NCBI GenBank assembly: GCA_023135905.1
Contig: JAGLSE010000047.1
Location: forward strand, 1-50,286
Direction: 5' to 3'
DNA from: Candidatus Omnitrophota bacterium
Lineage (GTDB): Bacteria > Omnitrophota > Gorgyraeia > Duberdicusellales > 4484-171
DNA: 50,286 bases
In this document: in pieces, positions 1,962 through 42,727 of the stretch
How the letters are laid out: every line of letters begins with the position of its first letter
Position numbering within the stretch: position 1 is the first letter of the stretch
The notes under the pieces: model-generated
Told to the model about the DNA's origin: nothing
Database searches by the model: none
What the model saw: only the letters and a program-made list of their open reading frames with translations
Made by a program: the position numbers and the translations under genes

Positions 1962-3371
1962 CTATAAATTGTTAACTCGTTTAAGTAAAAGCATAGCTAA
2001 CTTTGCCTGCATAACTAATTGTTTTAAAGATGTAGCTTTATGAAGCTTATTTAATATATAGCTTGGTCTAAAATAAAACTTTTTATATGCTTTTTCAAGG
2101 TATTTATTTAAAAAATCTTCATCTAAAAGCGTAGATAAATTATGTATTCGATTATACCACCGCTGAAATAAAAATGTATTTATTTTTTGAGGAAGACCGC
2201 ATTGCTCATAAAATTTAGTAGAAGGTAGTGGGGTAGCTATCAGAAATTCAGCGTAATCAAGATTAAGTTTAACAGCAAAAGCTATCGTTTGATTAATGGT
2301 TATCTCATCGTCACCCCACATTCCTAACATAAAAGATCCGGAAGATTCAATCCCTGCCGCTTTAGTTAACCGAGCGGCTTCTATAGATTCTTCCAAAGTA
2401 GTTCCTTTATTATTTAAATCCAACACCTCTTGAGAACCGCTCTCAAAGCCATAATTTATCTGATAACAACCTGCTTTTTTCATTACTAACAACAATTTTT
2501 TATTTACATTCTTAACCCCGGAAAAACATCTCCAACTTATCCGATAATTTCTACGGATAATTTCATCGCAAAGTTTTAAAATTCTTTCTTGTTCAAAAGT
2601 TAATGCCTGATCCCGAAAAATTATTGAATATATTTTAAATTTATTAATAATTTCATCAATTTCCTGCAGCACACTATCTACAGAACGGTATCTAACCTCG
2701 TTCATATACCATATATTCGTCGGACAAAAATCACATTTACTATGAGGACAACCTCTGCTAGTAGCAATAGTTGTAAAAGGATTGATTTTAACATAAGGAG
2801 CGATATACTTTTCATTTGGTAACAAATCTCGAGCTGGAAAAGGAAGCCAATCTAAATCGTTTATTAATTTACGCTTTTTAAGGACTATTTTTCCATTTAA
2901 CTCACATGCAATATTCTCATTAATTTCGCCGTTAACTATATCCAAAAACGGCTTTTCCGGCTCGCCCAAAATAACATAATCAACACACCCGGTGGATAAC
3001 GCAATTTTTGGATCAGCAGTAACATTCGACCCGGCAAATACTATTTTGGAACAAGGCAATTTAGTCTTTAACTTCTCAGCTAACTTCAAATCTGATTGAA
3101 TGCTTCCCCACGCAGTAATTATTCCGATAAAATCTGGATGAGCTCCAATAATCATTTTTATAGTTTCGGAATTGGAAATATGCAAAGTACCTGAATCCAA
3201 AAGGGTAACCGCAATATTATTTTTTCGTAAAACAGCAGCTATATAAGCTAAATCTAAAGGAGGATAAACCATAGAAGTAGGTATTTCCCCACCAGAATAA
3301 TCACGCAAATAATGAATATGCTCTTTACCCTCTAACTCTACCAAAGGATTAATTAAAAAAACTTTTTTCAT
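1962..3371 (-). CDS. B12-binding-domain radical SAM protein (class B-like) with atypical CX4CX2C cluster motif
   Basis: 469 aa. The N-terminal cobalamin-domain pattern is PPLDLAYIAAVLRKNNIAV..DSG, PDFIGIIT, IVFAGSNVTADP, VDYVILGEPE. The radical SAM core is ATSRGCPHSKCDFCPT (4 residues between Cys1 and Cys2, checked in DNA at 2724-2750). A YGFESGS motif follows. Confidence 0.85.
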   Translation of the reverse strand: MKKVFLINPLVELEGKEHIHYLRDYSGGEIPTSMVYPPLDLAYIAAVLRKNNIAVTLLDSGTLHISNSETIKMIIGAHPDFIGIITAWGSIQSDLKLAEKLKTKLPCSKIVFAGSNVTADPKIALSTGCVDYVILGEPEKPFLDIVNGEINENIACELNGKIVLKKRKLINDLDWLPFPARDLLPNEKYIAPYVKINPFTTIATSRGCPHSKCDFCPTNIWYMNEVRYRSVDSVLQEIDEIINKFKIYSIIFRDQALTFEQERILKLCDEIIRRNYRISWRCFSGVKNVNKKLLLVMKKAGCYQINYGFESGSQEVLDLNNKGTTLEESIEAARLTKAAGIESSGSFMLGMWGDDEITINQTIAFAVKLNLDYAEFLIATPLPSTKFYEQCGLPQKINTFLFQRWYNRIHNLSTLLDEDFLNKYLEKAYKKFYFRPSYILNKLHKATSLKQLVMQAKLAMLLLKRVNNL

Positions 3372-3502
3372 ATCATATTTATATTATAAACACACTACCT
3401 CGCAACAGATGCCCTCCGTCTTACTACATCCTAAAAAATATATAAGAATCAATACCCTTTAAATCTAATTTCCTTTAGCCTAAGTTTTATTGTGATTTTC
3501 TA

Positions 3503-4927
3503 TTAATTTTTAGGCTGTGATAATAATGAAATAACACCAATAATATGGTCTTTTAGTTGAATCCATGTTCTTATAGCCCTAAATTTTCTTAAAATATATG
3601 CAAACCTAAAATAAAACTCTTTTCTAGCCCGTACAAAAAATTTTATCAACTCTTCTTTGTCTAATCCCTCAGGAATATACATAATATTATTATTGTTAAC
3701 AACACTAAGCCTTTTGTTAAAATCAAAATAGTACCCTTTCTTTGTGAGCATTTTAGAAATCTCACTTCCTGGATAAGGTATAAATTTAATAAAAAGGGCG
3801 TAATCAATATCAGATTTCTTTGCGAAATCCAATGTTTTTTGTAAACTGTTTTTTGACTCCCAAGGAGTTCCTACTACAAAATGCCCTCTTACACTTAAAC
3901 CCGCTTTCTTGGCTGATTTTACCGCCCTCTCATTTTGAGCTAAAGTGATACCACTTTTGAGAAATTTAAGTACATTTTCATCGCCTGATTCTAAACCATA
4001 TGAGACTTCCCAACACCCAGCTTTTTTCATCCTTTTTAGTAATTCATAAGACACAGTATTAACTGAAGCGAAACAGACCCAGGAAAATTTAATATTACGC
4101 TCTTGAATTTTGTCACATATTTCAAAAACCAATTCTTTGTTCCAAGTAAAATTATCATCAAAGAACTTAATCTCTTTAGCCCCAAATTTATCTATCAATA
4201 GTTCAATCTCCTCTAAAATGTTATCTGCACTTCTTGTCCTGTAAGTTGAACCAAATACTGATTGATCGCAAAAACTACATTTCATAAGGCATCCCCTAGT
4301 ACTTATTATATGGGCTAATGGTAGTCTTCTGTAAGACCCAATGGTAGAAAAATATTTAGACAAAGGCGGCAACAAATGTCGTGCCGGGAATGGTATATCA
4401 TCTAAATTATTTATAAGGTCACGTTTCTTATTAGTCATTATTTTATTATTTTTTCTATAAACGATACCAGAAATATCTTCGAAACAATCTGCGCCTGATG
4501 TCTCAATCCGCTTAACTAACTCTAAAAAAGTTAATTCTCCTTCTCCAATTACTCCTATATCAAAACAATCAAACAACATAACCTCTGACGGAAGCGCCGT
4601 AACATGAGGACCGCCAATAATAATGTTCGCTTTAGGCAAAAGACTTCTTATATCTTCAGCTATTTTCTTCGCACTATAAAAGCCCAAACTTGTCGCTGTA
4701 ATTCCTACAATATTTGGTCTTTTAATTTTTAGGTATTCTATTAACTTGAGGTGCAACATTTCTATTGCGCAGTCAAATATTTTAACCTTATAGTTATTTT
4801 TTTCTAAGGTAGCAGCAATATACGCTATTCCTAAAGGCGCTGCAATATTTAATATAGTCCTTCTGTGTTCCTGCCTCGAGATAGAATGACCTAGTTGTAT
4901 CGGTGGATTTATTAAAACTATATTCAT
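3503..4927 (-). CDS. B12-binding-domain radical SAM protein
   Basis: The ORF is open to 4957 (TTG), but the first ATG at 4927 gives MNIVLINPP, the same N-terminal type as the paralogs. Motifs are PLGIAYIAATLEKNNYKVKIFD, IIIGGPHVTALP, GVIGEGELTFLEL, STRGCLMKCSFCDQ and YGLESGD. Its closest in-window paralog is 37743..39158. Confidence 0.85.
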   Translation of the reverse strand: MNIVLINPPIQLGHSISRQEHRRTILNIAAPLGIAYIAATLEKNNYKVKIFDCAIEMLHLKLIEYLKIKRPNIVGITATSLGFYSAKKIAEDIRSLLPKANIIIGGPHVTALPSEVMLFDCFDIGVIGEGELTFLELVKRIETSGADCFEDISGIVYRKNNKIMTNKKRDLINNLDDIPFPARHLLPPLSKYFSTIGSYRRLPLAHIISTRGCLMKCSFCDQSVFGSTYRTRSADNILEEIELLIDKFGAKEIKFFDDNFTWNKELVFEICDKIQERNIKFSWVCFASVNTVSYELLKRMKKAGCWEVSYGLESGDENVLKFLKSGITLAQNERAVKSAKKAGLSVRGHFVVGTPWESKNSLQKTLDFAKKSDIDYALFIKFIPYPGSEISKMLTKKGYYFDFNKRLSVVNNNNIMYIPEGLDKEELIKFFVRARKEFYFRFAYILRKFRAIRTWIQLKDHIIGVISLLSQPKN

Positions 4928-5106
4928 AATGTTTTTATCTTTATTATAAAAAAACAATGTCTAATTTAAATAAGTCTTATACAAAGCTTAACTCTTTAAC
5001 CCAAAAATATTTCGAAAAAACAAAAATTAAAACAAAAAAATCAAGAACTACAAAAAACATCGTAAATATAACTATTAATCTTAAAAAATATACGCCATTT
5101 AATATC

Positions 5107-5685: not shown

Positions 5686-7194
5686 TCAGCTTTTCAAACT
5701 CCTGCCATCTACATCGTCCTTTTTTAAATTGTTACCATTGACTGAAGGACTTGATAATTGTCTTATTAAATAAGATTGTAAAATCAAACCAAATGCGATT
5801 ATTAAATTCTTTAGAAATACGCCCTTATGAGGAAATTTTAATATTCCCCGACATATTCTCCTCAAATTTAAGTAAAATTTCTGTTGAGCTTTTAATATGA
5901 CATTATTTAATTCTAAAACAGAGGATTGAGAATGAGACCTTTCCCGGGAATAATAAGAAATGTCCTCAAAGCTATAAGGATATGGTTTATTCTCTGCTTT
6001 TGGTTGTAATTTTGCTTTATAAAATTTAACAATATCATCAAGAAGAGTTACTTTAAAAAAAGAAGCAATATCTAAATCAGAATTAACAGCAAAGTCTATC
6101 GTTTGTGTCATTTCATCGTAAGTTTCAGTAGGAAAACCTAGCATAAAATATCCCCCCACTATGATACCTGTCTCTGAAGTCTCTCTGATAATATTTCTTA
6201 CCTGGTTGAGATTTAAATTTTTCTTTATCATTTTCTGTAAACGCGGAGTAGCTGTCTCTATGCCATAAGTTAATTTATAAGCTCCTGCCTCTCTCAATAA
6301 GATGATTAACTCCTTAGTCATAATGTCAGCGCGGACACCATGAGGAAAGGCAAGGCTGATTTTCATACCAGAATTAATAATCAAACTGCAAATTTTTTTT
6401 GCTCTTTCAATGTCATAATTAAAAACAGCGTCAAAAAAATGAATTTCCCTAACATTATACTTTTCATATAAAAATTTGATTTCAGAAAGAACATTTTCGG
6501 GTGAACGTGCTCTGAATTTTTTACCGGCAACCTCCCTAGTACAACAAAAAGTGCAATCAAAGGGGCATCCCCGTGAAGTAAGGATAGGGATATAAAACTT
6601 TTCTTTAAGGCTTCCGTTCCAGCTCAAAGACTTCGCATAGGCTTTAACATCCACCAAATCCCATGCGGTTGAAGATATGATAATATCGTCTAAATTCTCA
6701 ATATACAGACGAGGATTAGTTAAAATAGTTTTCTCCTCCAACCTATATATAATTCCATCAACTCTTGAAAAGTCACCTTTTTTATCTAAATTATCCAAAA
6801 GTTCACATATAGTAATTTCTCCTTCTCCAACTATCACAAAATCAATATTTTCGTCTTGCAATAAATACTCTTTTGCTAAATTAGCAATCTGACCATGGAC
6901 CAAAACTGTTGTATTTTTATTAATCTTTTTGGAAATATCAGTTATTTTGTGCATGGAATGAGCCTCCCAAACCAAACTGCTAAGGCAAATGATCTGCGGA
7001 TCGAAACCAGCAATTTCCCCCTTGATCTCTTTAAAAGAAAGAGCCCCTACACCAATATCTAAAATTTTAAGCTCATATTCATTTTTAAAATTATTCATTA
7101 TCATTGAGGCAATATAGAGCAATTCCAACGGAGGACGTGGACCGCCTGTCCCTACTGCACAATGTGTCCTAACTAGCAAAATTCTTTTCTTCAT
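5686..7194 (-). CDS. B12-binding-domain radical SAM protein
   Basis: The ORF is open to 7215 (TTG). The ATG at 7194 (MKKRILLVRT) is preceded by AGGAA. Motifs are PPLELLYIASMI, PQIICLSS, GEGEITICELL, TSRGCPFDCTFCCT and YGIETAT. Confidence 0.85.
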   Translation of the reverse strand: MKKRILLVRTHCAVGTGGPRPPLELLYIASMIMNNFKNEYELKILDIGVGALSFKEIKGEIAGFDPQIICLSSLVWEAHSMHKITDISKKINKNTTVLVHGQIANLAKEYLLQDENIDFVIVGEGEITICELLDNLDKKGDFSRVDGIIYRLEEKTILTNPRLYIENLDDIIISSTAWDLVDVKAYAKSLSWNGSLKEKFYIPILTSRGCPFDCTFCCTREVAGKKFRARSPENVLSEIKFLYEKYNVREIHFFDAVFNYDIERAKKICSLIINSGMKISLAFPHGVRADIMTKELIILLREAGAYKLTYGIETATPRLQKMIKKNLNLNQVRNIIRETSETGIIVGGYFMLGFPTETYDEMTQTIDFAVNSDLDIASFFKVTLLDDIVKFYKAKLQPKAENKPYPYSFEDISYYSRERSHSQSSVLELNNVILKAQQKFYLNLRRICRGILKFPHKGVFLKNLIIAFGLILQSYLIRQLSSPSVNGNNLKKDDVDGRSLKS

Positions 7195-7711
7195 TTTTCT
7201 TGTTCCTGTAACCAAAAATAAAATATCAAAAAAAATATATGTTATAACTAAGGGGATAAATTTTAAAGTTTAAAAAAAATATTAAAAATATCTACTTATT
7301 TTTTAAATATCTTAACAAAAATTTATCCTCTTCTATTGTATTAGAAAAACAAACCGGCGCCCTTAGCACAGCAAAAATTCCAAAAACATAACAACAGACA
7401 CCACTACACACCATTTTATATTATTTGTCTTATTTAAAAGAATAGCCAATTCAACGGAATCAATGGCTATTTCCATTATATATTTAATTGCCGCCCATAT
7501 TGGCTCCGGCATATTTATGCAAACCAGATTCCAATTTAAAAGGTATTTTTAAAAGCATGAAAGAATCACAACCAGTAGCTTCTACTGCTTTTCCTCCCAG
7601 AAAAAATACTACCTACAATAATTACCGGCATAAATAAAGTCATCACCCCAAGAACAGTGTTTTTTCATTATTAAAACGAAATCCGCAACATCGGGTATTT
7701 TTATCCATATA

Positions 7712-8563
7712 TCAACCTTCTATCAATTTACCCATCCTGCTCTTTTTCCCTTTTTCAATATAGTCATTTAAAAGCTCAGCAAAAAAATCAATTTTTTCTC
7801 TATAAAATTCAATGGTTGTTTCCTTATACTGCTGGTAACTATGGTTGTAAAGATAATACCATCGGACAAAAATATTGAATAGGATAAATTGAAAACAACG
7901 GGATTGCATTCGGCGATCCAATTCCGTACCCTTAACATTCCCCGAAGGCATGAGCCCCATCTTAAATAACTCATTGTTTGTTGTTCTCTTTTTCTCTTCA
8001 ATTACGGACTTATCTTTATCTACATCAGAAAAAATTTTTTCAAAATGCAATCTATCGACAAACCCAGTATCCTGATCCCCATCAAAATCAAAAACGGGAT
8101 TTATATATTTAATACCAAAATTTAAATACATATCTGTAATCTCTTTTATAATTTCTTTCATCTGAGCGGGGAAAATATCCATGCCTTTGTTTGCACCATC
8201 ACAAACGTTATAAATCTTGTTGTCCAAACAAAATACAACTGTTCGAATATGCATGGCTAATTTACATAACCCGCATATCGAAAGCAAGAAAAATCGGTAC
8301 TTTATAAAATTTAGAAGATAACGCTCATAAAAAACATATTTCGATAATTTATTAATTTTTATTATCCTATGGGTAAACTTTTTCTCTCCGAATTTATTTT
8401 TTAATTTTTTAACATTTACCTTCGAATTAATTATTGAAAACAACCCCAAACGATCATACGTGATTAAATGGACCCTCCTAAACTTCTCAGCCATAAGGAC
8501 AGCTGTAAGAGTAGAATCCGTCCCGCCGGAATAAAGTAATACAATTTCATCATTATTGTCCAT
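7712..8563 (-). CDS. PP-loop (adenine nucleotide alpha-hydrolase superfamily) ATPase
   Basis: 283 aa. The N-terminal IVLLYSGGTDSTLTA is the SGGxDS PP-loop signature. An internal CGLCK motif is present. The start overlaps the upstream small ORF by 11 nt. Confidence 0.7.
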   Translation of the reverse strand: MDNNDEIVLLYSGGTDSTLTAVLMAEKFRRVHLITYDRLGLFSIINSKVNVKKLKNKFGEKKFTHRIIKINKLSKYVFYERYLLNFIKYRFFLLSICGLCKLAMHIRTVVFCLDNKIYNVCDGANKGMDIFPAQMKEIIKEITDMYLNFGIKYINPVFDFDGDQDTGFVDRLHFEKIFSDVDKDKSVIEEKKRTTNNELFKMGLMPSGNVKGTELDRRMQSRCFQFILFNIFVRWYYLYNHSYQQYKETTIEFYREKIDFFAELLNDYIEKGKKSRMGKLIEG

Positions 8564-8849
8564 TCTTATTTTTTTTAAATTTTGCTTTTTCTAATTCATT
8601 AATGATAAATTTCAGGATAAAAAAATAACTAAAATAAAAAAATTGTGTTATCCAGCCAAGCACCTCGATATAAAGACACCGCAATCGCCACGGTAAAAGT
8701 ACGCCAATGCTACAAATAATAAACGCTATTAATTTTCTGATCATTATTAAAAGAGAGCATAAATTGCTGGAAGAATAGATTGATTCCCGCTTAGACTGAT
8801 AAATATACTTAAAAAAGCAAGTATGATAAGAAAAGGCAATAACCACCAT
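8553..8849 (-). CDS. Small hydrophobic protein (uncertain; real start possibly M36 at 8744)
   Basis: 98-aa ORF with two hydrophobic segments (LIAFIICSIGVLLPW, ITQFFYFSYFFILKFII). Its 3' end overlaps the PP-loop gene start, which suggests coupling. I recognise no family. Confidence 0.35.
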   Translation of the reverse strand: MVVIAFSYHTCFFKYIYQSKRESIYSSSNLCSLLIMIRKLIAFIICSIGVLLPWRLRCLYIEVLGWITQFFYFSYFFILKFIINELEKAKFKKNKNGQ

Positions 8850-10482: not shown

Positions 10483-10573
10483 ACCGCAAATTATATATTC
10501 ACAACCAATAATATAAAACAGTAATATTATACCTTTATTATATTATATCTCAACTTTTATCCCAAATAGCGAT

Positions 10574-11832: not shown

Positions 11833-12211
11833 ATTATTTTATCTATCCATAAAGTTCACCTTCTACAATGTGTTAAATTATTCATATTTAAATGGTTACA
11901 AAAATTGATTTTACTTCTTTAAAATAACGCGAAAAAATTTAATTAACGGATATTGAAAATTTACTATTTAATTCGGTTCTGTCTTAAACAAGTTGTGCAG
12001 CTGATCTTATCCATTCTTTATTTTATCATCATTTTATAAAAACCCCTTTTATTTTCAGCAATTTCCTTGCATTATTATAAAGTTTGCTCTCATTACTCTT
12101 TGAATCATATAATATTAAATGTTTTTAAAAGGCTAACTACTTACTACAGAGGATATAGATAAAAATATTAAATTAAAAAATTTTGAAATACTATAGCTAA
12201 AATAAACCATC

Positions 12212-19351: not shown

Positions 19352-19380
19352 TTGACACTTCAATCAATCTATTTTATACT
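19352..19380 (+). promoter_or_regulatory. Candidate sigma-70-type promoter (TTGACA-N17-TATACT)
   Basis: TTGACA lies at 19352-19357, followed by a 17-nt spacer and TATACT at 19375-19380. The site is ~225 nt upstream of the ATG at 19605. Hexamers like these can arise by chance in AT-rich DNA. Confidence 0.35.
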
Positions 19381-19494
19381 TTGATTAAATGCATTTTAAA
19401 GGTGAAAAAAAGGTGAAAATGTTAGATAAAAAATTAATGATAAGAGGATGGCGGCCGACCCCCATAAGTCGACCTAAACCGCCATTAAAGCCTT

Positions 19495-19524
19495 CTAAAT
19501 AGCTAAAATATTTTAGCTATTTAG
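19495..19524. repeat. Perfect 30-bp palindrome
   Basis: CTAAATAGCTAAAAT|ATTTTAGCTATTTAG reads identically on both strands. It lies 80 nt upstream of the 19605 ATG and just after a GC-rich patch (19448-19485) that contains the inverted repeat ATGGCGG...CCGCCAT. Confidence 0.6.
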
Positions 19525-34689: not shown

Positions 34690-34875
34690 GACAAATTATC
34701 CTTACCATACCACATTCTTAATTTCCACTGAATTATATACATATTTTTAAAATCTATTAGTCTTTATTTTTATATCACAAGGGTTAGAATTCCTAAAATT
34801 GCAGAAATCTCTAAAAATATCTTATATTCGATATCAAAATCTAAAAATACAAATTATTCCCATAAAACTTATACT

Positions 34876-36597
34876 TTATAATATCTCCGCTCCATATATT
34901 TCAATTTTTTGTTTTTTTAGTTTATTAACTCTATCCTCATCACCCCTCAATGTGAAATAAAAAATCATCTCGTTAATAGACCCCAAATTTTCTACTTTTC
35001 CAAACTCATAAGAACTAATGACTTTATGATTATTAAAAAACCCGGCATTTTTCATATTTCTAACATTTATTCTATTATTAAATACATTAAGACCGGTAAC
35101 GATCATATAACCTACAGATAAATACACTGTAAATAAATAATAAAATCTTAAACTGTCATTTTGACTTTTAAAATTTTTCAATTTGCCCCATACTTTAAGA
35201 TTTCCTAATATCTTAAGAATAAATAATATTATCAGCCCTACGGCAATAATCAAAGGTATACATATTTTTAATTTTAAACCTATTTCTTTTAACTGAAATA
35301 GCGGCATCAAAACATATTTAATATTACTAAATCTTTGAATAATTGGCGGGAATCCCGACACATAGATTAAATCCTTATGGGATATATATTCCGAAATTAT
35401 CAAAAAATTCCAAAAGATACAAATAATTGATATCCCGTAAAAGATAATATTTGTTAATCTCTTTTTTTGAATTTGCGAAACAATTGCGTACAATAATACA
35501 AATACAGGAAACTCCGTAAGTAAAGGTCTTGCCCCGCAAGTCCCCCCGCCCCAAGCATAACGCCATCCCAAAACAATTATCTTTATTAAAACATATAAAC
35601 ACAAAAACAAAGCAACAATATTTACATTTTTAAATGATGAATAATTATTTTTATTCTTTTTTAAATAATCCAACAATATTAGACATATACCTGCTAAACA
35701 GATATAAAATACCGGAGACGTATAAAAAAACCCGCGATACGAAGAAAAAAGTTGGTCCAACAAATAATTACCTTTCAAATTTAATGTGCAGACTTCCCCT
35801 ATATGCAAATTACCATATTTAATATAATCATTTATAGTCTTTAAAGCTATCCCCGGAACAATTCCAATTAAAAAAAATATTCCTTTTACCCATGATATTC
35901 TTCTACCAATGACATGATATATAAAAAAAGAGAATATAAAAAGGCTGTGAAACCATAAATCTACTTTTACGGCAATACAAATAGAAAAAAATAATCCGAA
36001 AACTAACCATGGAGTTTTTCCTTTATCAATAATTTGCAAATAAAATAAAATCAAAATAACAGACAATAATGTTGCAATTATATTCGCATTAGCGACTTCA
36101 AAAAGGCTATAAAAAAATATTGGTGTTCCAAAAAAAATTACCAAAATAGACCAAACAGTCACTTTATCTGAAAAATATTTTCTGCAAAACAAATAGGTAA
36201 ACATAATAGTAAAAAATGCGAAAACAATCGTACTAAAGGACATTAAACATTTTGCAACCTGTTCAAATTCAAATGTTCCTAGATTTAGCAAATCAAACTT
36301 ATCGGAAAAAAAACAAATAATCTTTACATAAATATAAAATGGCGCCCATAGAACAACTCCCCCATGATTATGAAAATCAGGAAGATTATATGTTTCAGAT
36401 ATCCCCACTTTACCGGATGGAAGATAATAAGGATAACATTCATTCAAATGGTTAACGGCATTAAGGTCACCATCTTCGACAATACTTGCAGTATAGGCAT
36501 AATAAATAGGTTCATCAGGACCCTTAAAATTAATATTGAATATAATAAAAAAATATAAAAATATCAATAGAAAAGTAAAAAATATACTTTTTTTCAT
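34876..36597 (-). CDS. GT-C-fold membrane glycosyltransferase (ArnT/PMT-like)
   Basis: 573 aa with ~12 hydrophobic segments. The first extracytoplasmic loop is GPDEPIYYAYTASIVEDGDLN (acidic DE motif). Confidence 0.6.
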   Translation of the reverse strand: MKKSIFFTFLLIFLYFFIIFNINFKGPDEPIYYAYTASIVEDGDLNAVNHLNECYPYYLPSGKVGISETYNLPDFHNHGGVVLWAPFYIYVKIICFFSDKFDLLNLGTFEFEQVAKCLMSFSTIVFAFFTIMFTYLFCRKYFSDKVTVWSILVIFFGTPIFFYSLFEVANANIIATLLSVILILFYLQIIDKGKTPWLVFGLFFSICIAVKVDLWFHSLFIFSFFIYHVIGRRISWVKGIFFLIGIVPGIALKTINDYIKYGNLHIGEVCTLNLKGNYLLDQLFSSYRGFFYTSPVFYICLAGICLILLDYLKKNKNNYSSFKNVNIVALFLCLYVLIKIIVLGWRYAWGGGTCGARPLLTEFPVFVLLYAIVSQIQKKRLTNIIFYGISIICIFWNFLIISEYISHKDLIYVSGFPPIIQRFSNIKYVLMPLFQLKEIGLKLKICIPLIIAVGLIILFILKILGNLKVWGKLKNFKSQNDSLRFYYLFTVYLSVGYMIVTGLNVFNNRINVRNMKNAGFFNNHKVISSYEFGKVENLGSINEMIFYFTLRGDEDRVNKLKKQKIEIYGAEIL

Positions 36598-36624: not shown

Positions 36625-37716
36625 TTATCTCAAATAAAAAAACGACTCTTTTAGTATCTGACAAAATTGTCTAATAAACCCTTGAGTTGAACAGCGTATA
36701 TTAATCTCAGTATGTGTCGTATCCCAACATTTAGAGGTGCATTGATGAACCTTTTTCCGCAGCTCATTAAAAGCCTTGGATTTTAATATATTCTCCAATG
36801 ACTTATCCCTTAAATTTTCGTTTCCTTCTATATCCTCACAAGGAGAAACCCAACCCAACGAATCAACTGAACAAGAAATATAACCTGCAAAACAAGGCAC
36901 CCTTTGATAATCGGAATTATATAAAAAGCTTAAACCATTTAAAAATTCTAAAGAGTTAGATAATAATCTCGATAAAGAAATCGCTTTAATAAGCTTTTTA
37001 ACCTCATACGATAATTCAAATAAATCTTCATCTTTAAAAATCAACTCTTTAAAACAATCTTGATTATTATTCTTATGTTTTAAATTTGTATGAATCGGTG
37101 AAAATTTAATTTGATCTACTTTAAGTTCTTCTGCAAACGCGACCATCTTATATATATTTCTAAAATTCCTTTTAGTAATTAAAGTATTTATTCCTATTTT
37201 TATTCCTGGTAAACTTTTCTTCATAAGCTTAATCCCTTCCATCACTTTATCATAACACTCAACACCTCTCATTTGATTATGAATATCACTTAAATAGCTA
37301 TCAATAGAAACAGAAATAGAATTTACTCCTGAGAACCGTAATCCTTTTATAATATCTTCATTAATTAGAGTTCCGTTTGTACATAGATGGACGGAAATAC
37401 CATATATTCTTATATATCTAATAATATCAAATATGTCAGACCTTAAAAGCGGTTCCCCTCCTGTAATAATTATAACTGCAGCCTTCAGTTTATAAGCAGC
37501 ATCAATAAAAGAATACCATTCTTTAGTTGTAAGCTCTTCATGCAATATCTCTGAAGAAGTTTGCCACTGTTGGCACATTCTACATCTAAGATTACACCTT
37601 CTGGTAACCCAAATAATAGGAAAAAGAATGTTTTTACTAAATATTTGTTTCCACCTACACCTTTTAACATCAATAAAAGATATCAAATTATTTGTCTGTT
37701 TAATTATTCTTTTCAT
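36625..37716 (-). CDS. Radical SAM protein with C-terminal SPASM/twitch-type Cys-rich domain
   Basis: 363 aa. Motifs are WVTRRCNLRCRMCQQW (CX3CX2C) and ITGGEPLLRSD. The C-terminal part is CFAGYISCSVDSLGWVSPCED...HQCTSKCWD. Confidence 0.8.
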   Translation of the reverse strand: MKRIIKQTNNLISFIDVKRCRWKQIFSKNILFPIIWVTRRCNLRCRMCQQWQTSSEILHEELTTKEWYSFIDAAYKLKAAVIIITGGEPLLRSDIFDIIRYIRIYGISVHLCTNGTLINEDIIKGLRFSGVNSISVSIDSYLSDIHNQMRGVECYDKVMEGIKLMKKSLPGIKIGINTLITKRNFRNIYKMVAFAEELKVDQIKFSPIHTNLKHKNNNQDCFKELIFKDEDLFELSYEVKKLIKAISLSRLLSNSLEFLNGLSFLYNSDYQRVPCFAGYISCSVDSLGWVSPCEDIEGNENLRDKSLENILKSKAFNELRKKVHQCTSKCWDTTHTEINIRCSTQGFIRQFCQILKESFFYLR

Positions 37717-37742: not shown

Positions 37743-39158
37743 CTATAAAGACATTATCGAATATGCTCCTTTCAAATTTCCTATAAATTCCGTAAAAGTC
37801 CTCATAGCTAATAACCTTTTAAAAATATATCCCGGGCGCAAATAAAATTCTTTATATGCCCTATTAAGAAGTTTTTCATACTCTGTATCGCTAAAATCTT
37901 CGGGTATATACAAAAAATCATTATGATTATTTATATATCCTCCATTATTAAAATCAATATGATATCCTTTAGAAACTAAATTTTTATAAATAATTGTTCC
38001 GGGATAAGGAACAAACTTATTGAAATGCGCAAAATCTAAAGGAAGACTTTTAGCAAACTCAATAGTTTTCTTAAAACTATGTTTGGTCTCCCAAGGACTA
38101 CCCACCAAAAAATCACCACGTATACTCATACCGGCTTTTTTAGCCCACCAAACAGCTTTCTTGTTTTGATCTACAGTATTTCTTTTACCTAGACATTTTA
38201 AAATATCATCGTCTCCTGATTCTAAACCAAATAACACCTGCCAACACCCGGATTTCCTCATTATTTTAAGCATATCAAAATTAACTGCTGTAACTTTTGT
38301 AAGACAAGTCCATGGAATCGAAGGATATATCCTTTTCATTTCATAGCACAATTCTTCCACATGTTTAGAATCAATAGTCAAACTATCATCAAAAAAACGG
38401 ACTTCCTTCGCACCATATTTATCAACAACTTCTTTTACCTCTAACATTATATTAGAAACACTCCTTTTCCTCAACTTTTCACCGAATACCGATCTATCAC
38501 AAAAAACGCAATAACTAGGACAACCTCTGGAAGTCATAATAACTGCTAAAGGTAATTTTCTATAGGAAGCAGGAGTAGGACTGTAATCTTTCAAGGCCGG
38601 CAACAAATGTCGTGCTGGCAAAGGTAACGAGTCTAAATTTTCAATCCTTGGACGAGGCTGATTAATTATAATTTTATTTTTTATTTTAAAAGCTACCCCT
38701 TTAATATTTTCTAATAATACTTTGCATTTGCCATCTATAAACGATATAAGTTCTGAAAATGTTTCTTCTCCTTCACCTAATATTAAATAATCAAATACTT
38801 CCGTTTCTAATGCATTCTTAGGATCAGCAGTGGGATGCGGACCTCCGCAGATAAAAATTGCCTTAGGTAAAATCTTTCGTAAAAAAACTGTAGATTCTAT
38901 AGCATTTAAAAATCCGGGAGTCGTAGCTGTAATTCCTATTAATTCCGGATTAAAATTAATAATTTCTATTACTAAACTTTTTAACTCTAAACCTAAAAAA
39001 CAATCAATTATTTTAACTTTATGACCTTTTTTTTCAGCTATAGCCGCTATATAGGCTAACCCTAGAGGAGGAATTATATTAAGAGATCCTTTAAAATTTT
39101 CTTTATCGCCGCCAATTTCTTTATAACCAAAAGGCGGATTTATAAAAAGCATATTCAT
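37743..39158 (-). CDS. B12-binding-domain radical SAM protein (closest paralog of 3503..4927)
   Basis: 471 aa. Motifs are PPLGLAYIAAIAEKKGHKVKIID, ICGGPHPTADP, LILGEGEETFSEL, TSRGCPSYCVFCDR and FGLESGD. Confidence 0.85.
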   Translation of the reverse strand: MNMLFINPPFGYKEIGGDKENFKGSLNIIPPLGLAYIAAIAEKKGHKVKIIDCFLGLELKSLVIEIINFNPELIGITATTPGFLNAIESTVFLRKILPKAIFICGGPHPTADPKNALETEVFDYLILGEGEETFSELISFIDGKCKVLLENIKGVAFKIKNKIIINQPRPRIENLDSLPLPARHLLPALKDYSPTPASYRKLPLAVIMTSRGCPSYCVFCDRSVFGEKLRKRSVSNIMLEVKEVVDKYGAKEVRFFDDSLTIDSKHVEELCYEMKRIYPSIPWTCLTKVTAVNFDMLKIMRKSGCWQVLFGLESGDDDILKCLGKRNTVDQNKKAVWWAKKAGMSIRGDFLVGSPWETKHSFKKTIEFAKSLPLDFAHFNKFVPYPGTIIYKNLVSKGYHIDFNNGGYINNHNDFLYIPEDFSDTEYEKLLNRAYKEFYLRPGYIFKRLLAMRTFTEFIGNLKGAYSIMSL

Positions 39159-40348
39159 AAAATTTTTTTAATGACTCTCGCCATCATATATATATGTTTT
39201 ATAGAAATACCTTCATGCAATGGCAGTTGGATAGCACTTTTAAAAACTTTTTTTGTATTAGGACAATCATCCCATCCTAAAAGATCTCCACAATCATCAG
39301 TTATCTCCGCTTCTATGCCCGCATCTATACCATATCTAAGCAACCTTTTTCGTAGTCTCCAAATATTATTTTTTGACACCAAACCCACAAAAAAATAGTA
39401 ATTCGGAAACACATCTTTACCTATTTCTTGAGACATCAATATCCCTTTTAACAACTGTTTAAATAAACCAGCTTTTTCTTGTCTTATGGCAATCCTTTCA
39501 TCTAATGTTTTTATTTTCTTTAACCCAATAGATGCTTGAAAATCTGTATATGAAGTCATGAAAGAAGGAGGCCGTTGTATCAATCTATAAAGATTACTTA
39601 TCTTTTTATTAGACCATTCGCAAGAAAGAAGACTTAAGATTGGCAACGATATTGAGGTAGAAGAAATAAAACGTTCAAGAAAAGCAACAAAAATCTTTTC
39701 TTTTGGTAAAAACGACCTATATTTATATTCCCCGGAATATTTTCGAACTCGTAAAAATAAATCTTCATTATTTGTAACGACCATCCCACCGCCATAAGTA
39801 TTAATCGGTTTCATTGATTCAAAACTATAGAATGCCGCATCTCCAAATGAACCTGTAATCTTATCCTTAAATCTTGACCCAGCCGAATGTGCACAATCTT
39901 CTATAACATAAATCGACTTATTCTTAGCAATTTTCAAGATTTCATCAATATCACAAGGAGTTCCAAACATATGCGTTGCTAAAATCAATTTTGTTTTTTT
40001 TGTAATCCTTTTTACCACTGAATCAGGATCTATGTTAAAAGTATTTGGATTTATATCCGCAGGAATTGGAACTAACCGCATAGTTCGAATAACGCTTATT
40101 AAATCTTTTAAAGTATAAGCGGGAATGATAATCTCATCTCCGGGTTCTAAATGGAACGATTTAAGAATATTCTCCATCCCCCCCCTTCCTGAATTAACTG
40201 CAACAGCATATTTGACCCCTAAATATCTTGCAAATTCTCTTTCCCATTCATCTATATACTGTAAAAAACGGTTACTGTCACCTAATAAGCTCTTAAGAAC
40301 AAGCTTCCATTCATCCTCTAATACATGGGCTTTTCGTCTAGTTAACAT
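39155..40348 (-). CDS. DegT/DnrJ/EryC1/StrS-family PLP-dependent sugar aminotransferase
   Basis: 397 aa. Motifs are FARYLGVKYAVAVNSGRGGME, IIPAYT, IEDCAHSAGS and FYSFESMKPINTYGGG (Schiff-base Lys context). It overlaps the downstream gene start by 4 nt. Confidence 0.8.
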   Translation of the reverse strand: MLTRRKAHVLEDEWKLVLKSLLGDSNRFLQYIDEWEREFARYLGVKYAVAVNSGRGGMENILKSFHLEPGDEIIIPAYTLKDLISVIRTMRLVPIPADINPNTFNIDPDSVVKRITKKTKLILATHMFGTPCDIDEILKIAKNKSIYVIEDCAHSAGSRFKDKITGSFGDAAFYSFESMKPINTYGGGMVVTNNEDLFLRVRKYSGEYKYRSFLPKEKIFVAFLERFISSTSISLPILSLLSCEWSNKKISNLYRLIQRPPSFMTSYTDFQASIGLKKIKTLDERIAIRQEKAGLFKQLLKGILMSQEIGKDVFPNYYFFVGLVSKNNIWRLRKRLLRYGIDAGIEAEITDDCGDLLGWDDCPNTKKVFKSAIQLPLHEGISIKHIYMMARVIKKIL

Positions 40349-40349
40349 C

Positions 40350-41222
40350 TTAATTCTTACTCTTTATATCTTTAATTTCCACGGAGGTATGTCCATAAAT
40401 CTGAAACCTATTTGTCTTTACTTTTATATCACAAGGATTACAATCACCAAAGCTAGAGCAATCTCTAAAAACATCCTTTATTTCAAAACAAGGATCTAGT
40501 AAATTACCTATAGAAGATACTCTATCATACAAATCATGATGACATTTGAAAATACTGGCATCAGGGCCTATAATAAGTTCAGAATTTCGGCATCGGCATT
40601 TTTTTTTGTTATTTCCACTAACTGCTTCAGGATAAAAGTATTCTCCATACAGCTTACCGCCAAACTTACCTAAAAATTCTTTCTCTCTAAAGTCAATACC
40701 TAATTCAGAACACTTATCCTTTGCATCTGCTATTTCGGATTTTAAATTAGGGTGCCTAACACCATAGATACCTATAGAAAATCCTGCCGCCTGCATTTTT
40801 AATACTTTTATCATAAGCTTATCTAATTCCATGAAATGAGGATGATAGCTTACCCTTATGGAAGGATAAGGTGCCTCTCTATATAATCTAGATGGATCAA
40901 CTTCTTTTATAAACCTATTGATATCAAAAGATAAATTAGTAAGTATATCAATATTTACTTCTTTTTTTATATTTTTGATTATCCATATAAAATCCGGATG
41001 CAAGCTAGGTTCTCCTCCTTGTAAAGTTATAGGCAAATCTGTTCGAGAAACCAAACGATTTAACGCGGAAACCCACTTTTTGCCGCTAAAAGGAAAACTT
41101 TTATGCTTCTTAATTCCATGATGACTATTTATACAGTAATCACATTTAAAATTACAGTCTAATGTCAAAAAACAGGCAATATAATTATATCTACCCGGAA
41201 TATATATTGTTTTTTCCTTCAT
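40350..41222 (-). CDS. Small radical SAM protein with C-terminal Cys-rich region
   Basis: 290 aa. Motifs are CFLTLDCNFKCDYCINS and LQGGEPSLHPD. The C-terminal part is CRCRNSELIIGPDASIFKCHH...CSSFGDCNPC. Confidence 0.75.
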   Translation of the reverse strand: MKEKTIYIPGRYNYIACFLTLDCNFKCDYCINSHHGIKKHKSFPFSGKKWVSALNRLVSRTDLPITLQGGEPSLHPDFIWIIKNIKKEVNIDILTNLSFDINRFIKEVDPSRLYREAPYPSIRVSYHPHFMELDKLMIKVLKMQAAGFSIGIYGVRHPNLKSEIADAKDKCSELGIDFREKEFLGKFGGKLYGEYFYPEAVSGNNKKKCRCRNSELIIGPDASIFKCHHDLYDRVSSIGNLLDPCFEIKDVFRDCSSFGDCNPCDIKVKTNRFQIYGHTSVEIKDIKSKN

Positions 41223-41275
41223 AATTAATTTAACAGTTAGCTAACAAAAAAATTTAAAGACATTTTATTTCCTTA

Positions 41276-42727
41276 TCACCCTTTTCGCCTTTCATGCCGA
41301 AACCAATCTTGCTTTAAACTTTTAATAAAAATTTTTAAAGAAACCCAGAAACTTGCCTTAGTAACATATATTTTTTTTCGGAAAACCCTCATCTTAATAA
41401 AATAATATATTAAAGTAAACAAAAAATTATGCGGGAGATAAATAAGAAATCGTAAAATCAAATTCCTTAAAAAGGGAAAGACTACAGCTACAGCCCCCAA
41501 AGAAGAAAGATTCATCTGAATATTCTTTTCCTTTTCGGTAAAACAATTTAAAGGAGATCTATATTGGTACGAAGTATGCAAATCTTCAAAATTATCTTTA
41601 TAATAGCCCTTTTCAATGGTTAATTCTCCAAGTTCAGTTTTAGGATAAGGATGAAAAATGGGAAATTCTGCCCAATCAACCTTTGACGTAATAGCTAAAT
41701 CTACCGATTCAATGTCATTCCTAACATTGGTTTCCGGCAAACCAATAATACAATTAGTAAAAGTATAAATTTTATATTTATCACAAAGCATATGAACCTC
41801 AATAATCTGTTTATTTGTCATCCTACGTTTAAGCATATTTTCTCTAATTTTTGAATTTCCTGCCTCTATAGACATACTAATTGTCCGGCAGCCGGCAAAT
41901 TTCAGCAATTTCACCATATCCTCAGTAAGTAAATCCGCCCGCGTTAAAATAAAAAAAGGGAGATTTATATGTTTTTTGTATTTTTTAGAAAATTCTTCCA
42001 GCCACTCATCTGCCTTGTAAGTAAAAATATCATCGTAAAATTTAACAAAACTTAAAGGCCATCTATTTTTTACATATTTAATTTCATCAATAACATAATT
42101 TACACTATTGCGCCGAACCGCTTTCCCTTTATTACGGTAAATCTCTCGCCAGGCACTATTAAAACAATAAGTACATTTGTAGGGACACCCCCTTGAGGTA
42201 ATAATGCTTTTTAAAGGATAATTTCCTAAAGGAGTATTATCATAAATTAAAGAAAAATCCGGAAAAGGCAAAGTATCTAAATCTTCTACTAAATTACGGA
42301 CCGCCAATTTATCTCTGTTATTTCTAGTAACAATATTGGGTATGCCATCTACAGATTTTTGGACTGCAAGCATCTTTAAGGTATCAACGAAAGCATATTC
42401 CCCTTCGCCTCGGCATATTGCATCTAAATCGCTATTATAGATTAAATCTGGATAAAATGTAGGATGCGGGCCGCCCATAATCGTAAATACCTCTGGAAAT
42501 TTTTTTTTAATTATTTGATTCAATCTAATATAATGTTTAGCTTCACCTGTAGAAGAGCTATAGGCAACAACATCCGGCCTTAAATCGGAAATACATTTTA
42601 GTGGATTTTGAGAATTCATCTCGCATAAATAAGTACTATAACCTTCTTTTTTGGCAACTGAGGAAATAAAACATAATCCTATCGGTACCAAAAAATTCTC
42701 ACTTTTAAAAATAAATAGAACCTTCAT
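41276..42727 (-). CDS. B12-binding-domain radical SAM protein (subtype shared with 29538..31007)
   Basis: 483 aa. Motifs are PDVVAYSSST, IMGGPHPTFYPD, ICRGEGEYAFVD and TSRGCPYKCTYCFN. Confidence 0.85.
   Translation of the reverse strand: MKVLFIFKSENFLVPIGLCFISSVAKKEGYSTYLCEMNSQNPLKCISDLRPDVVAYSSSTGEAKHYIRLNQIIKKKFPEVFTIMGGPHPTFYPDLIYNSDLDAICRGEGEYAFVDTLKMLAVQKSVDGIPNIVTRNNRDKLAVRNLVEDLDTLPFPDFSLIYDNTPLGNYPLKSIITSRGCPYKCTYCFNSAWREIYRNKGKAVRRNSVNYVIDEIKYVKNRWPLSFVKFYDDIFTYKADEWLEEFSKKYKKHINLPFFILTRADLLTEDMVKLLKFAGCRTISMSIEAGNSKIRENMLKRRMTNKQIIEVHMLCDKYKIYTFTNCIIGLPETNVRNDIESVDLAITSKVDWAEFPIFHPYPKTELGELTIEKGYYKDNFEDLHTSYQYRSPLNCFTEKEKNIQMNLSSLGAVAVVFPFLRNLILRFLIYLPHNFLFTLIYYFIKMRVFRKKIYVTKASFWVSLKIFIKSLKQDWFRHERRKG

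Follow-up and report, generated by a model that had tools for sequence, protein, structure and literature searches.

Why would one stretch of bacterial DNA carry thirteen radical S-adenosylmethionine (SAM) enzymes among genes for sugar modification and glycosyl transfer? The question is raised by contig JAGLSE010000047.1 of an anaerobic Candidatus Omnitrophota bacterium (assembly GCA_023135905.1), of which positions 1 to 50,286, called the window below, were analysed. Eleven of the thirteen enzymes are class B, with a B12-binding domain, and the same combination of radical SAM and glycan genes recurs in other genomes. The best explanation is a supercluster of at least 68 kb for a cell-envelope glycoconjugate, with the window at its centre. 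We consider it somewhat probable that the radical SAM enzymes tailor nucleotide- or polyprenyl-phosphate-linked sugars for an envelope glycoconjugate that is assembled in the periplasm by transferases of the GT-C type.

Extent and density of the locus

The thirteen radical SAM open reading frames (ORFs, named here by their first coordinate) of the original prediction are all present in the ORF list, all on the minus strand, and their lengths do sum to 6,075 amino acids (aa), about 18.2 kb or 36% of the 50,286 nucleotides (nt). Co-directionality and translational coupling, which had also been proposed, are both seen. Apart from one, the large genes are all on the minus strand; the plus strand has a single ORF longer than 200 aa. 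Overlaps of 11 nt (26256/25352), 4 nt (39155/37743), 14 nt (33628/32913) and 4 nt (32913/31036) occur together with many gaps shorter than 30 nt, and the small radical SAM gene 40350 is separated from the aminotransferase gene 39155 by 1 nt. One co-directional operon of 22 kb, 42727->20298, interleaves five B12-binding and two SPASM-type radical SAM genes with sugar and transfer genes. The window has about 36 genes, 13 of them for radical SAM enzymes; the binomial probability of this is about 1e-13 at a genomic frequency of 2% and about 1e-8 at 5%, and the density is therefore far beyond chance.

How far does the locus extend? The window is part of the ENA metagenome scaffold ZHAN22-2_SAMN18200498 scaffold_15 (165.7 kb), and several sister samples also yielded assemblies of the same locus. 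The nearest named homologues for several of its proteins come from Candidatus Omnitrophica/Omnitrophota, and the 90%-identity cluster to which the AsnB-type protein belongs has a member annotated likewise. The downstream flank holds, within 10 kb, one further radical SAM gene and one further B12-binding radical SAM gene. The former encodes 361 aa and is accompanied by an Aminotran_3 gene. Also found there are a second U32 gene, a paralog of membrane protein 34876 and a GDSL protein with tetratricopeptide repeats (TPR). In the upstream flank, large membrane proteins without Pfam match alternate with GDSL-TPR proteins. The 13 genes of the window and the two downstream therefore make at least 15 radical SAM genes in about 68 kb. 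The G+C content of the window is 30%. A search of the window with Rfam at gathering thresholds and for tRNAs found nothing, including no cobalamin or SAM riboswitch, and a promoter and terminator scan of 18-23 kb was indistinguishable from shuffled sequence.

The eleven class B paralogs

The B12-binding radical SAM genes are as follows, with Pfam scores in bits and, where given, the NCBIfam score against its cut-off.

41276-42727, minus: 483 aa; PF04055 75.3, PF02310 62.6; CPYKCTYC at aa 181; HpnJ 118.7 against 577.6; first gene of the operon 42727->20298
37743-39158, minus: 471 aa; PF04055 85.6, PF02310 78.6; between the DegT and SPASM radical SAM genes, an insertion relative to other Omnitrophota
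29538-31007, minus: 489 aa; PF04055 66.3, PF02310 61.1; CPFNCSYC at aa 187
26256-27686, minus: 476 aa; PF04055 76.9, PF02310 72.5; 11-nt overlap with the gene of an ArnD-like deacetylase
23817-25337, minus: 506 aa; PF04055 84.5, PF02310 50.3
17149-18675, minus: 508 aa; PF02310 67.4, PF04055 32.9; first of a pair conserved across phyla
15715-17136, minus: 473 aa; PF02310 83.1, PF04055 81.4; second of the conserved pair
13997-15661, minus: 554 aa, the most divergent paralog; PF04055 63.1, PF02310 57.4; TIGR04190 237.7 against 500
5686-7215, minus: 509 aa from TTG (502 aa as database gene call); PF04055 87.4, PF02310 51.9
3503-4957, minus: 484 aa from TTG (474 aa as called); PF04055 92.2, PF02310 69.7
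1962-3371, minus: 469 aa, with non-canonical Cx4Cx2C; PF04055 67.6, PF02310 45.6

As had been expected from the letters, all eleven match both PF02310 (45.6-83.1 bits, cut-off 32.1) and PF04055 (32.9-92.2 bits, cut-off 29.5) above the gathering scores. The cluster motif is CxxxCxxC in ten of them and in both other radical SAM enzymes of the window, as had been read, but not in ORF 1962, where CPHSKCDFC (aa 208-216) is Cx4Cx2C and has a one-residue insertion against the ten paralogs at the aligned position. The DxHxxG motif is found in none of the eleven; to our knowledge, the solved class B enzymes likewise do without it. Pairwise identity among the paralogs is 20-45%, the closest pair being 3503/37743 with 45%; the set is old and diverse.

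What reaction do such enzymes carry out? ORF 26256, the one paralog of which a structure was modelled (AF2, pLDDT 92.7), gives full-length Foldseek matches to every solved class B enzyme. MgmA, TsrM, AprD4, OxsB, CysS and TokK are matched with E from 1e-25 to 1e-19 and query-normalised TM-scores of 0.63-0.73; the TM-score of the model is highest for AprD4, with 0.71-0.76. By sequence, too, no solved structure is closer than AprD4 to ORFs 15715 (E=9e-35) and 37743 (6fd2, E=3e-25). This enzyme is a radical diol-dehydratase on an aminoglycoside sugar and not a methylase. The class B architecture of the eleven is thus established, but the multiple C-methylations of the original prediction are not.

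For family placement, NCBIfam cut-offs and PDB neighbours were used as proxies for phylogeny. The paralogs fall outside the curated families BchE, HpnJ, HpnR, PhpK, AprD4, Mmp10 and BzaD, in agreement with the original prediction, since all scores are well below the cut-offs. The best are 214 against 577.6 for HpnJ (TIGR03471), 235 against 481 for BchE (TIGR02026), 136 against 500 for AprD4 (NF033070) and 238 against 500 for TIGR04190. Membership of the BchE and HpnJ families was rejected, with scores under half of the cut-offs. HpnJ, a proposed ring-contraction enzyme, is the top sub-threshold model for six paralogs, at 20-37% of its cut-off. TIGR04072, a B12-binding radical SAM family connected with lipid 'ladders', gives partial matches of 74-142 bits to ten of the eleven and 38 bits to ORF 13997; partial matches to ApyD and to the C-methyltransferases TIGR03975 of RiPPs (peptides made by the ribosome and modified after translation) are also seen. 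A hydrophobic segment is predicted near the C-terminus of four paralogs (5686-7215, 13997-15661, 17149-18675 and 41276-42727); it suggests membrane association and hence lipid-linked substrates.

Sugar enzymes and membrane transferases

If the radical SAM enzymes act on sugars, which sugar genes stand beside them? The kinds of glycan gene named in the original prediction are found. There is a glycosyltransferase of family GT2 and there are PMT-type GT-C proteins; the sugar enzymes are DegT, WecB and AsnB, a dehydrogenase of GFO type, an acyltransferase with hexapeptide repeats and a deacetylase resembling ArnD. These genes, with further membrane and tailoring genes, are listed below.

39155-40348, minus: DegT/DnrJ/EryC1-family sugar aminotransferase; PF01041 216.7 bits; 1 nt after the small radical SAM gene and overlapping 37743 by 4 nt
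33628-34689, minus: non-hydrolysing UDP-N-acetylglucosamine (UDP-GlcNAc) 2-epimerase of WecB type; TIGR00236 267.6 against 210.15, PF02350 281 bits
32913-33641, minus: small soluble GT2 of 242 aa, possibly a polyprenyl-phosphate sugar synthase; PF00535 96.5 bits
31036-32916, minus: AsnB-type glutamine-dependent amidotransferase; TIGR01536 476.7 against 267.1, PF00733, GATase_7
25352-26266, minus: ArnD-like polysaccharide deacetylase/deformylase; PF01522 56 bits, NF011923 (ArnD) 159.1 against 382
22733-23791, minus: GFO/IDH/MocA sugar or inositol dehydrogenase; PF01408, PF02894, PF22725
22090-22728, minus: hexapeptide-repeat sugar N/O-acyltransferase; PF00132 106.7 bits, NeuD/PglB/VioB subfamily 95.1 against 160.8
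34876-36597, minus: membrane protein of 573 aa with 13 hydrophobic (transmembrane, TM) segments and GPDEP after TM1, probable GT-C
20298-21944, minus: 9-TM membrane protein; phmmer E=3e-98 to ORF 43190, FDDEP after TM1
43190-46449, minus: two GT-C proteins of PMT and PMT_2 type (566 and 505 aa); PF02366 31.3 against 22.7, PF13231 49.2 against 26.1; 11 and 9 TM
46453-46980, minus: integral-membrane methyltransferase of PEMT/ICMT type, 175 aa; PF04191 45.7 bits; adjoins the GT-C genes
within 46453-47947, minus: SDR sugar epimerase/dehydratase, 319 aa; PF01370 94.3 bits, HpnA 139.7 against 367.65

The proposed polyprenyl-phosphate GT2 was borne out as to family (PF00535), but its specificity for polyprenyl phosphate draws on sub-threshold matches only: the best NCBIfam models are ArnC (89 bits), a dolichyl-phosphate hexose transferase and PpgS. 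A GT2 of 230-234 aa is found in the equivalent place in three related Omnitrophota loci (L096, L097 and L098 of our comparison). For the GFO-type enzyme the best sub-threshold models are IolG (inositol 2-dehydrogenase, 141.6 bits) and UDP-GlcNAc 3-dehydrogenase (112.5 bits, cut-off 450). Of the steps of the UDP-2,3-diacetamido pathway (WbpA/B/E/D/I type), the 2-epimerase is the only one to pass a specific cut-off (wecB 267.6 against 210), and no UDP-GlcNAc 6-dehydrogenase is found in the window or flanks.

Four membrane proteins (20298, 43190, 44932 and 34876) have an acidic DE motif right after the first TM helix, which we take to be the signature of the GT-C catalytic loop. ORFs 43190 and 44932 pass Pfam PMT/PMT_2, and 20298 joins them by paralogy to 43190. 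ORF 34876 has no Pfam match and no meaningful PDB sequence match, even with a profile of four sequences. In its family the GPDEP directly after TM1 is invariant, as in the PMT/PMT_2 proteins of the window, and it is probably a GT-C-type glycosyltransferase. Its orthologues score 517-534 bits in L096 and L098, and the family also occurs fused to TPR repeats (L096, 1088 aa). Because the GT2 is the only transferase of GT-A/GT-B type, assembly seems to rely mainly on polyprenyl-phosphate-sugar donors and on GT-C transfer in the periplasm. The PEMT/ICMT-type family includes the lipid A phosphate methyltransferase LmtA of Leptospira.

Two SPASM-type enzymes around DegT

The two radical SAM enzymes without B12-binding domain lie on either side of the aminotransferase.

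36625-37716, minus: radical SAM/SPASM enzyme, 363 aa; PF04055 and PF13186; L096 orthologue 413 bits
40350-41222, minus: compact radical SAM enzyme, 290 aa, with an auxiliary-cluster (SPASM/twitch-type) C-terminal half; PF04055 30.5 bits, Cys pattern, fold

The SPASM/twitch assignment of ORF 36625 agrees with Pfam (PF04055 99.6 bits; PF13186 29.3 bits, cut-off 21.5), and its sequence neighbours in the PDB are MoaA, SkfB, cytosylglucuronate decarboxylase and GDGT-MAS. ORF 40350 had been described simply as a small radical SAM enzyme. It is one (PF04055 30.5 against 29.5 bits), but this description missed its auxiliary-cluster Cys set and SPASM-type fold. Among 47 orthologues C23/C27/C30, GGEP and C211/C227/C255/C261/C264 are invariant. 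Pfam gives no SPASM match, and the top Foldseek matches of the model (pLDDT 81) are CteB, PqqE and anSME; it is a compact enzyme of SPASM/twitch type. Identity to the orthologues is 57-80%, and all of those that carry a name are from Omnitrophica/Omnitrophota. Do the two enzymes work like BtrN? BtrN is absent from the sequence matches of ORFs 36625 and 40350 and from the 50 listed Foldseek matches of the 40350 model. The one observation that points to a BtrN-type role is adjacency to DegT.

These neighbours raise another explanation, namely that the radical SAM enzymes modify a secreted or surface protein or peptide by methylation, cross-links or epimerisation, which is then O-glycosylated by PMT-type GT-C/TPR enzymes and GT9. 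The closeness of the small enzyme to the sactisynthase CteB, to PqqE and to anSME fits it, as do the partial matches of the B12-binding enzymes to ApyD and TIGR03975. PMT/PMT_2 proteins are classically protein O-mannosyltransferases, TPR domains often bind peptides, and Omnitrophota encode giant surface proteins. However, no candidate for a precursor peptide stands out, the intergenic gaps holding gene remnants only (short precursor ORFs are not fully excludable), and among the window ORFs Pfam detects neither an RRE/PqqD domain nor a leader peptidase nor a peptide ABC exporter. What is more, the enzymes directly coupled to the radical SAM genes (DegT, WecB, AsnB, GFO, ArnD-like and hexapeptide acyltransferase) belong to sugar pathways. 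We therefore regard modification of a protein or peptide as quite unlikely. A RiPP cluster was rejected as leading explanation for want of a precursor, RRE or exporter.

Conservation of the partnership in other genomes

Is the neighbourhood of radical SAM and glycan genes peculiar to this contig? It is not: other loci too (L014, L015, L035, L096-L099) show synteny between radical SAM genes and genes for glycosyltransferases and sugar enzymes, as the original prediction requires. In L096, from the Omnitrophica metagenome-assembled genome (MAG) GCA_002049725, the order of the window is kept, with the small radical SAM gene (462 bits), the adjoining DegT (421), the SPASM radical SAM gene (413) and a membrane protein of 575 aa (534). 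A B12-binding radical SAM gene and a GT9 gene (heptosyltransferase family) precede this block, the GT9 gene overlapping the small radical SAM gene, and a second SPASM gene and a 230-aa GT2 follow it. The order in L097 is GT9, small radical SAM, SPASM, SPASM and GT2, then radical SAM and Aminotran_3. About 25 kb of L098/L099 reads radical SAM, radical SAM/SPASM, GT2, GDSL, GT2, three B12-binding radical SAM genes, U32, GT9, small radical SAM, a protein of the 34876 family, two SPASM genes, GT2, radical SAM, GFO, radical SAM and Aminotran_3. There the orthologues of 17149 (711 bits), 15715 (614), U32 (341), the small radical SAM enzyme (412) and 34876 (517) stand within about 8.5 kb around GT9, so that parts which the window separates by as much as 40 kb are neighbours; the U32 orthologue of L098 lies between the B12-binding pair and GT9.

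L014 and L015 combine the B12-binding pair with GT1/GT2 genes, DegT and GDSL-TPR, and show seven B12-binding radical SAM genes in 21 kb; an orthologue of ORF 13997 (682 bits) is in L014. In L015 (positions 17573-19630, Omnitrophica MAG GCA_018824725) a single protein of 685 aa is a GT2-radical SAM-SPASM fusion, a Rosetta-stone link between glycosyl transfer and radical SAM chemistry. An orthologue of ORF 37743 (492 bits) adjoins GT2 and DegT in L035. A scan of the genome collection with the same ORF gave two distant matches only (L012, L013), driven by AT-rich peptide patterns of low information. A pair of a radical SAM gene of about 350 aa followed by an Aminotran_3 gene of about 470 aa occurs in three Omnitrophota loci: L004:16100-18606, just downstream of the window, L097:13895-16350 and L098:18376-20873.

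The most conserved pair of B12-binding radical SAM genes is 17149/15715. Orthologues of 17149 score 654-711 bits in L010, L011, L014, L015 and L098 and always adjoin a 15715 orthologue. Usually accompanied by a class I SAM methyltransferase, the pair is found in MAGs of Omnitrophota, Deltaproteobacteria, Myxococcota and Elusimicrobiota with 48-69% identity. A wider metagenome sample came from a scan with an alignment of ORF 26256; its members are relatives of the broad clade (28-41% identity) and not orthologues, and it is a sample of contexts only. Of its 38 loci of at least 9 kb with a related B12-binding radical SAM gene, 24 contain one or more glycan-type genes, and in 19 there are two or more B12-binding radical SAM genes. 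Glycan-type genes lie on the strand of the radical SAM gene in 34 of 41 cases, against a background of 65% (p=0.02).

Could unrelated radical SAM and glycan genes simply have gathered in a variable genomic island? Rearrangement has left scars in the window (the remains of a GDSL-TPR paralog, 120 nt copied from the 3' end of the small radical SAM gene, and a U32 gene recently duplicated), and gene order varies between L096, L097 and L098. However, these components are found together in no fewer than six independent contigs, the genes run in one direction and overlap at their stop and start codons, the L015 fusion joins both functions in one chain, and the binomial probability for 13 radical SAM genes among 36 is about 1e-13 to 1e-8. 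Chance juxtaposition is strongly disfavoured and very improbable. Since the B12-binding models match, no characterised family fits and the synteny is conserved, the original prediction stands on each of the three points at which it could have failed.

Proposed pathway and its alternatives

What might the locus make? Domain content, operon structure and conserved co-location are observed; which substrates are used, in what order, by what radical chemistry and for which acceptor, we infer as follows. UDP-GlcNAc would be reshaped by the WecB-type 2-epimerase, the GFO-type dehydrogenase, DegT, the hexapeptide acyltransferase, the SDR and the AsnB-type amidotransferase. The small GT2 (ArnC/PpgS type) would put the sugar on polyprenyl phosphate, and the ArnD-like enzyme would de-acylate the product. 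On the cytoplasmic face the radical SAM battery would act on unactivated carbons of the sugar intermediates. Around DegT, the two SPASM-type enzymes may be dehydrogenases independent of oxygen and NAD, in the manner of BtrN/anSME, making the keto group for amination by DegT; the eleven class B enzymes may carry out a mix of C-methylation, deoxygenation or dehydration (AprD4-like) and possibly ring contraction (HpnJ/Cds-like). At least four GT-C-type membrane transferases would then pass the finished units to a periplasmic acceptor, probably the core of lipopolysaccharide (LPS) or the lipid A region, while acyl and methyl groups would be added or taken off by the GDSL/SGNH-TPR proteins and the PEMT/ICMT-type methyltransferase. 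It is the GT9 neighbours in relatives that suggest the LPS inner core or the lipid A region as acceptor.

Several points weigh against this pathway. No curated NCBIfam equivalog cut-off is reached by any radical SAM enzyme of the window, and the GT2, the ArnD-like enzyme, the GFO-type enzyme, DegT and the acyltransferase are all under their specific equivalog cut-offs as well. Among the window ORFs Pfam finds no GT9, no Wzx/Wzy/ABC exporter and no lpx/kds genes. The acceptor may not be LPS, because PMT-type GT-C enzymes classically glycosylate proteins. Protein acceptors have precedents in PMT-type enzymes and in the autotransporter heptosyltransferase. SPASM-type radical SAM enzymes are mostly peptide maturases, and CteB and PqqE are the best structural neighbours of the small one in Foldseek. 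In the metagenome sample GT2 accounts for 21 of the 495 ORFs that reach 200 aa, a count without a matched random-locus control. Finally, in a Deltaproteobacteria MAG the pair 17149/15715 with its class I methyltransferase stands next to DnaB and ribosomal protein genes, and no glycan gene lies closer than 10 kb. Not every paralog need therefore act on a glycan, and this pair may act on something more general, e.g. a lipid.

The last point leads to the explanation that most class B enzymes modify hydrocarbon chains or the carrier or anchor lipid, with the glycan genes making only a glycolipid head group. Possible reactions are methylation, cyclisation and cross-linking, as by GrsA/B, Hgm/Gmm, HpnP/R or ladderane-type enzymes. 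Such tailoring of membrane lipids would suit the spread of the pair and its methyltransferase over Deltaproteobacteria, Myxococcota and Elusimicrobiota, at times lacking glycan neighbours, and its place near PgpA in L010. It would also suit the C-terminal hydrophobic segments of paralogs 5686, 13997, 17149 and 41276, the PEMT/ICMT-type methyltransferase and HpnA-like SDR of the window, and the partial TIGR04072 matches of 74-142 bits in ten of the eleven paralogs. Omnitrophota MAGs have been reported with Mss/Hbs homologues and 'ladderane-type' cluster calls, which counts in the same direction. However, no fatty-acid, isoprenoid, plsA/ger, Tes/Mss or squalene-hopene cyclase genes are found in the window or flanks, several B12-binding radical SAM genes overlap or abut sugar enzymes and not lipid enzymes, the closest solved relative, AprD4, acts on a sugar, and all scores to lipid families are far below the cut-offs. 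On this balance lipid tailoring seems unlikely, and the tailoring of sugars for an envelope glycoconjugate is preferred.

Comparison with known systems

Does the locus belong to a pathway already described? In the trio HpnI (glycosyltransferase), HpnK (deacetylase) and HpnJ (B12-domain radical SAM) of hopanoid side-chain biosynthesis, which acts on a lipid-linked hexosamine, and with the archaeal calditol synthase Cds, radical SAM enzymes act on lipid-linked hexoses. The window resembles the trio in its GT2, in the ArnD-like deacetylase gene that overlaps the B12-binding radical SAM gene 26256 by 11 nt, in its HpnA-like SDR and in HpnJ being the top model for six paralogs. It differs in that these scores are 20-37% of the HpnJ cut-off, squalene-hopene cyclase and other hpn genes are absent from the window, and eleven paralogs stand in place of one radical SAM enzyme. 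Its transferases are moreover of GT-C type, and its deacetylase belongs to Polysacc_deac_1, whereas HpnK is presumably of YdjC type. A hopanoid pathway was rejected, as there is no cyclase.

With the aminoglycoside systems (AprD4, GenK/GenD1, BtrN with BtrS) the window shares class B and twitch/SPASM radical SAM enzymes next to DegT-family aminotransferases on amino sugars. The likeness stops at 136 against 500 bits or less for the AprD4 equivalog; to GenK, GenD1 and BtrN the likeness is one of enzyme class. The context differs too, being an envelope GT-C/GT9 locus conserved across a phylum and not an actinomycete antibiotic cluster. Might the product nevertheless be a diffusible secondary metabolite, aminoglycoside- or aminocyclitol-like, and no component of the envelope? 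The set of class B enzymes (GenK/GenD1/AprD4 types), DegT, AsnB and a GFO-type enzyme that best matches inositol 2-dehydrogenase would suit it, and we take the SPASM/twitch enzymes beside an aminotransferase to parallel BtrN/BtrS. But the core block is conserved at 57-80% over very many Omnitrophota MAGs, which suits a housekeeping role in the envelope better than a strain-specific antibiotic. At least four GT-C-type transferases, membrane-anchored GDSL-TPR proteins and, in relatives, GT9 neighbours also speak for the envelope, and Pfam detects no 2-deoxy-scyllo-inosose synthase, resistance gene or exporter among the window ORFs. A diffusible metabolite is thus improbable.

In the Arn, Lgm, Flm and PpgS-Rv3779 routes, a polyprenyl-phosphate aminosugar is made by a GT2, de-acylated and transferred by a GT-C enzyme to lipid A or the cell wall. 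The window has a GT2 with ArnC and PpgS as best matches, an ArnD-like enzyme (159 bits), GT-C proteins of the PMT_2/ArnT superfamily and a DegT. It differs in its low scores (ArnC 89 against 529, ArnD 159 against 382, ArnB 133 against 631) and has no ArnA-type formyltransferase/decarboxylase. We know of no radical SAM enzyme in pathways of these types. By these scores the locus at most works like an Arn-type pathway and is not a member of it.

Dense radical SAM arrays have been reported from Elusimicrobia, where loci of group VI nitrogenase paralogs have up to 13 adjacent radical SAM genes, some B12-binding, and a modification of tetrapyrroles was proposed. The likeness lies in the density, in the B12-binding domains of some members and in the hosts, which are anaerobes of uncultured candidate phyla. 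The arrays there, however, flank NifH/D/K paralogs, whereas the window has no Nif-like genes and the partners are glycan enzymes. Literature searches on radical SAM/cobalamin with glycan, LPS and GT-C, on Omnitrophota, and on sugar radical SAM enzymes found no description of an envelope glycan locus rich in radical SAM genes. We rate the class of chemistry as known; what is new is its scale and that it forms part of a conserved envelope pathway.

Other genes of the window

The remaining genes and remnants are the following.

47966-49801, minus: 10-TM membrane protein, 611 aa, family unassigned, recognised by its TM count
27775-29445, minus: soluble protein, 556 aa, family unassigned, without TM segment, in the middle of the operon
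19605-20252, plus: TPR protein, 215 aa, with N-terminal hydrophobic segment, in the gap 18676-20297
12212-13927, minus: membrane-anchored GDSL/SGNH and TPR protein, 571 aa; Lipase_GDSL_2, many TPR families and an N-terminal hydrophobic segment; L014 orthologue 375 bits
8920-10482, minus: second membrane-anchored GDSL/SGNH and TPR protein, 520 aa; Lipase_GDSL_2 38.2 bits, TPR families and an N-terminal hydrophobic segment
7712-8849: protein of 283 aa resembling a PP-loop ATPase (DUF7411/QueC-like), overlapped by an ORF of 98 aa without match, between the GDSL-TPR genes and the B12-binding radical SAM gene 5686
731-1939, minus: Peptidase_U32-family protein, 402 aa, first of a tandem pair; PF01136 36 and 35 bits
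3-730, minus: second U32 copy, running off the window (392 aa in L004, where the pair is at 10001-12387); PF01136

ORF 47966 has no Pfam or NCBIfam match. For ORF 27775 neither Pfam nor NCBIfam nor the PDB gives a match, and the about 90 loci compared (L004, L009-L099) contain no homologue. At a Pfam E of up to 10, ORFs 27775, 34876 and 47966 give merely a 9-bit Pec_lyase and an 18-bit Tetraspanin match, far below cut-off. The 98-aa ORF within 7712-8849 is called as a gene in a sister contig. The membrane-anchored GDSL/SGNH-TPR proteins are plausible periplasmic acyl-modifying enzymes. A third, degraded paralog lies at 10652-11650, of which ORF 10652-11089 retains TPR repeats only; the 'intergenic' stretch 11090-12211 still encodes a GDSL-domain fragment with 27-36% identity to aa 48-149 of ORF 12212 and aa 57-149 of ORF 8920.

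The two U32 copies share a stretch of 300 nt with 79% identity (378-677 and 1586-1885), a recent duplication. U32 proteins include the O2-independent hydroxylases UbiU/UbiV and TrhP, and an anaerobic hydroxylation step by U32 is therefore conceivable. Between ORF 34876 and the 2-epimerase gene, positions 34718-34837 are an intergenic 120-nt copy of the 3' end of the small radical SAM gene (40372-40491), with 76% nucleotide identity and 56% at the protein level over 41 aa; it looks like a scar of rearrangement. The largest gap of the locus, 18676-20297, holds its sole sizeable plus-strand gene. In related genomes a class I SAM methyltransferase lies upstream of the pair 17149/15715. The window is without it, and a search of this 1.6-kb gap for its remnant found none.

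Significance

What would such a locus mean? Radical SAM tailoring of sugars is known from a few antibiotic pathways (GenK, GenD1, AprD4, BtrN, DesII) and from two cases that concern lipid head groups (HpnJ, Cds); it is not so far described as playing a major part in the assembly of cell-envelope glycans. The locus and its relatives are widespread in Omnitrophota, and looser versions occur in many anoxic metagenomes. They place many class B and SPASM enzymes that are still uncharacterised in a defined, testable context, the compact and conserved block of GT2, small radical SAM, DegT, SPASM radical SAM and GT-C-like genes.

A wider generalisation is more doubtful, and we offer it tentatively. 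Omnitrophota and other uncultured anaerobes may share a conserved envelope glycoconjugate whose sugars are rebuilt without O2 by at least a dozen dedicated radical SAM enzymes on polyprenyl-phosphate- or nucleotide-linked intermediates and attached by GT-C enzymes in the periplasm. The changes could include C-methylation, deoxygenation and amination via radical dehydrogenation, and possibly conversion to carbocycles. If so, carbohydrate biochemistry would gain a new branch, and envelope structures a new class.

The conserved partnership of radical SAM and glycan genes points to an unstudied, oxygen-free sugar chemistry. If the favoured reading, sugar tailoring for an envelope glycoconjugate, is true, it would show how strict anaerobes diversify their surface sugars without oxygenases and would supply new biocatalysts for the C-H functionalisation of carbohydrates. 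It would also predict methylated, deoxy or carbocyclic surface sugars in an abundant, uncultured and possibly host-dependent phylum.

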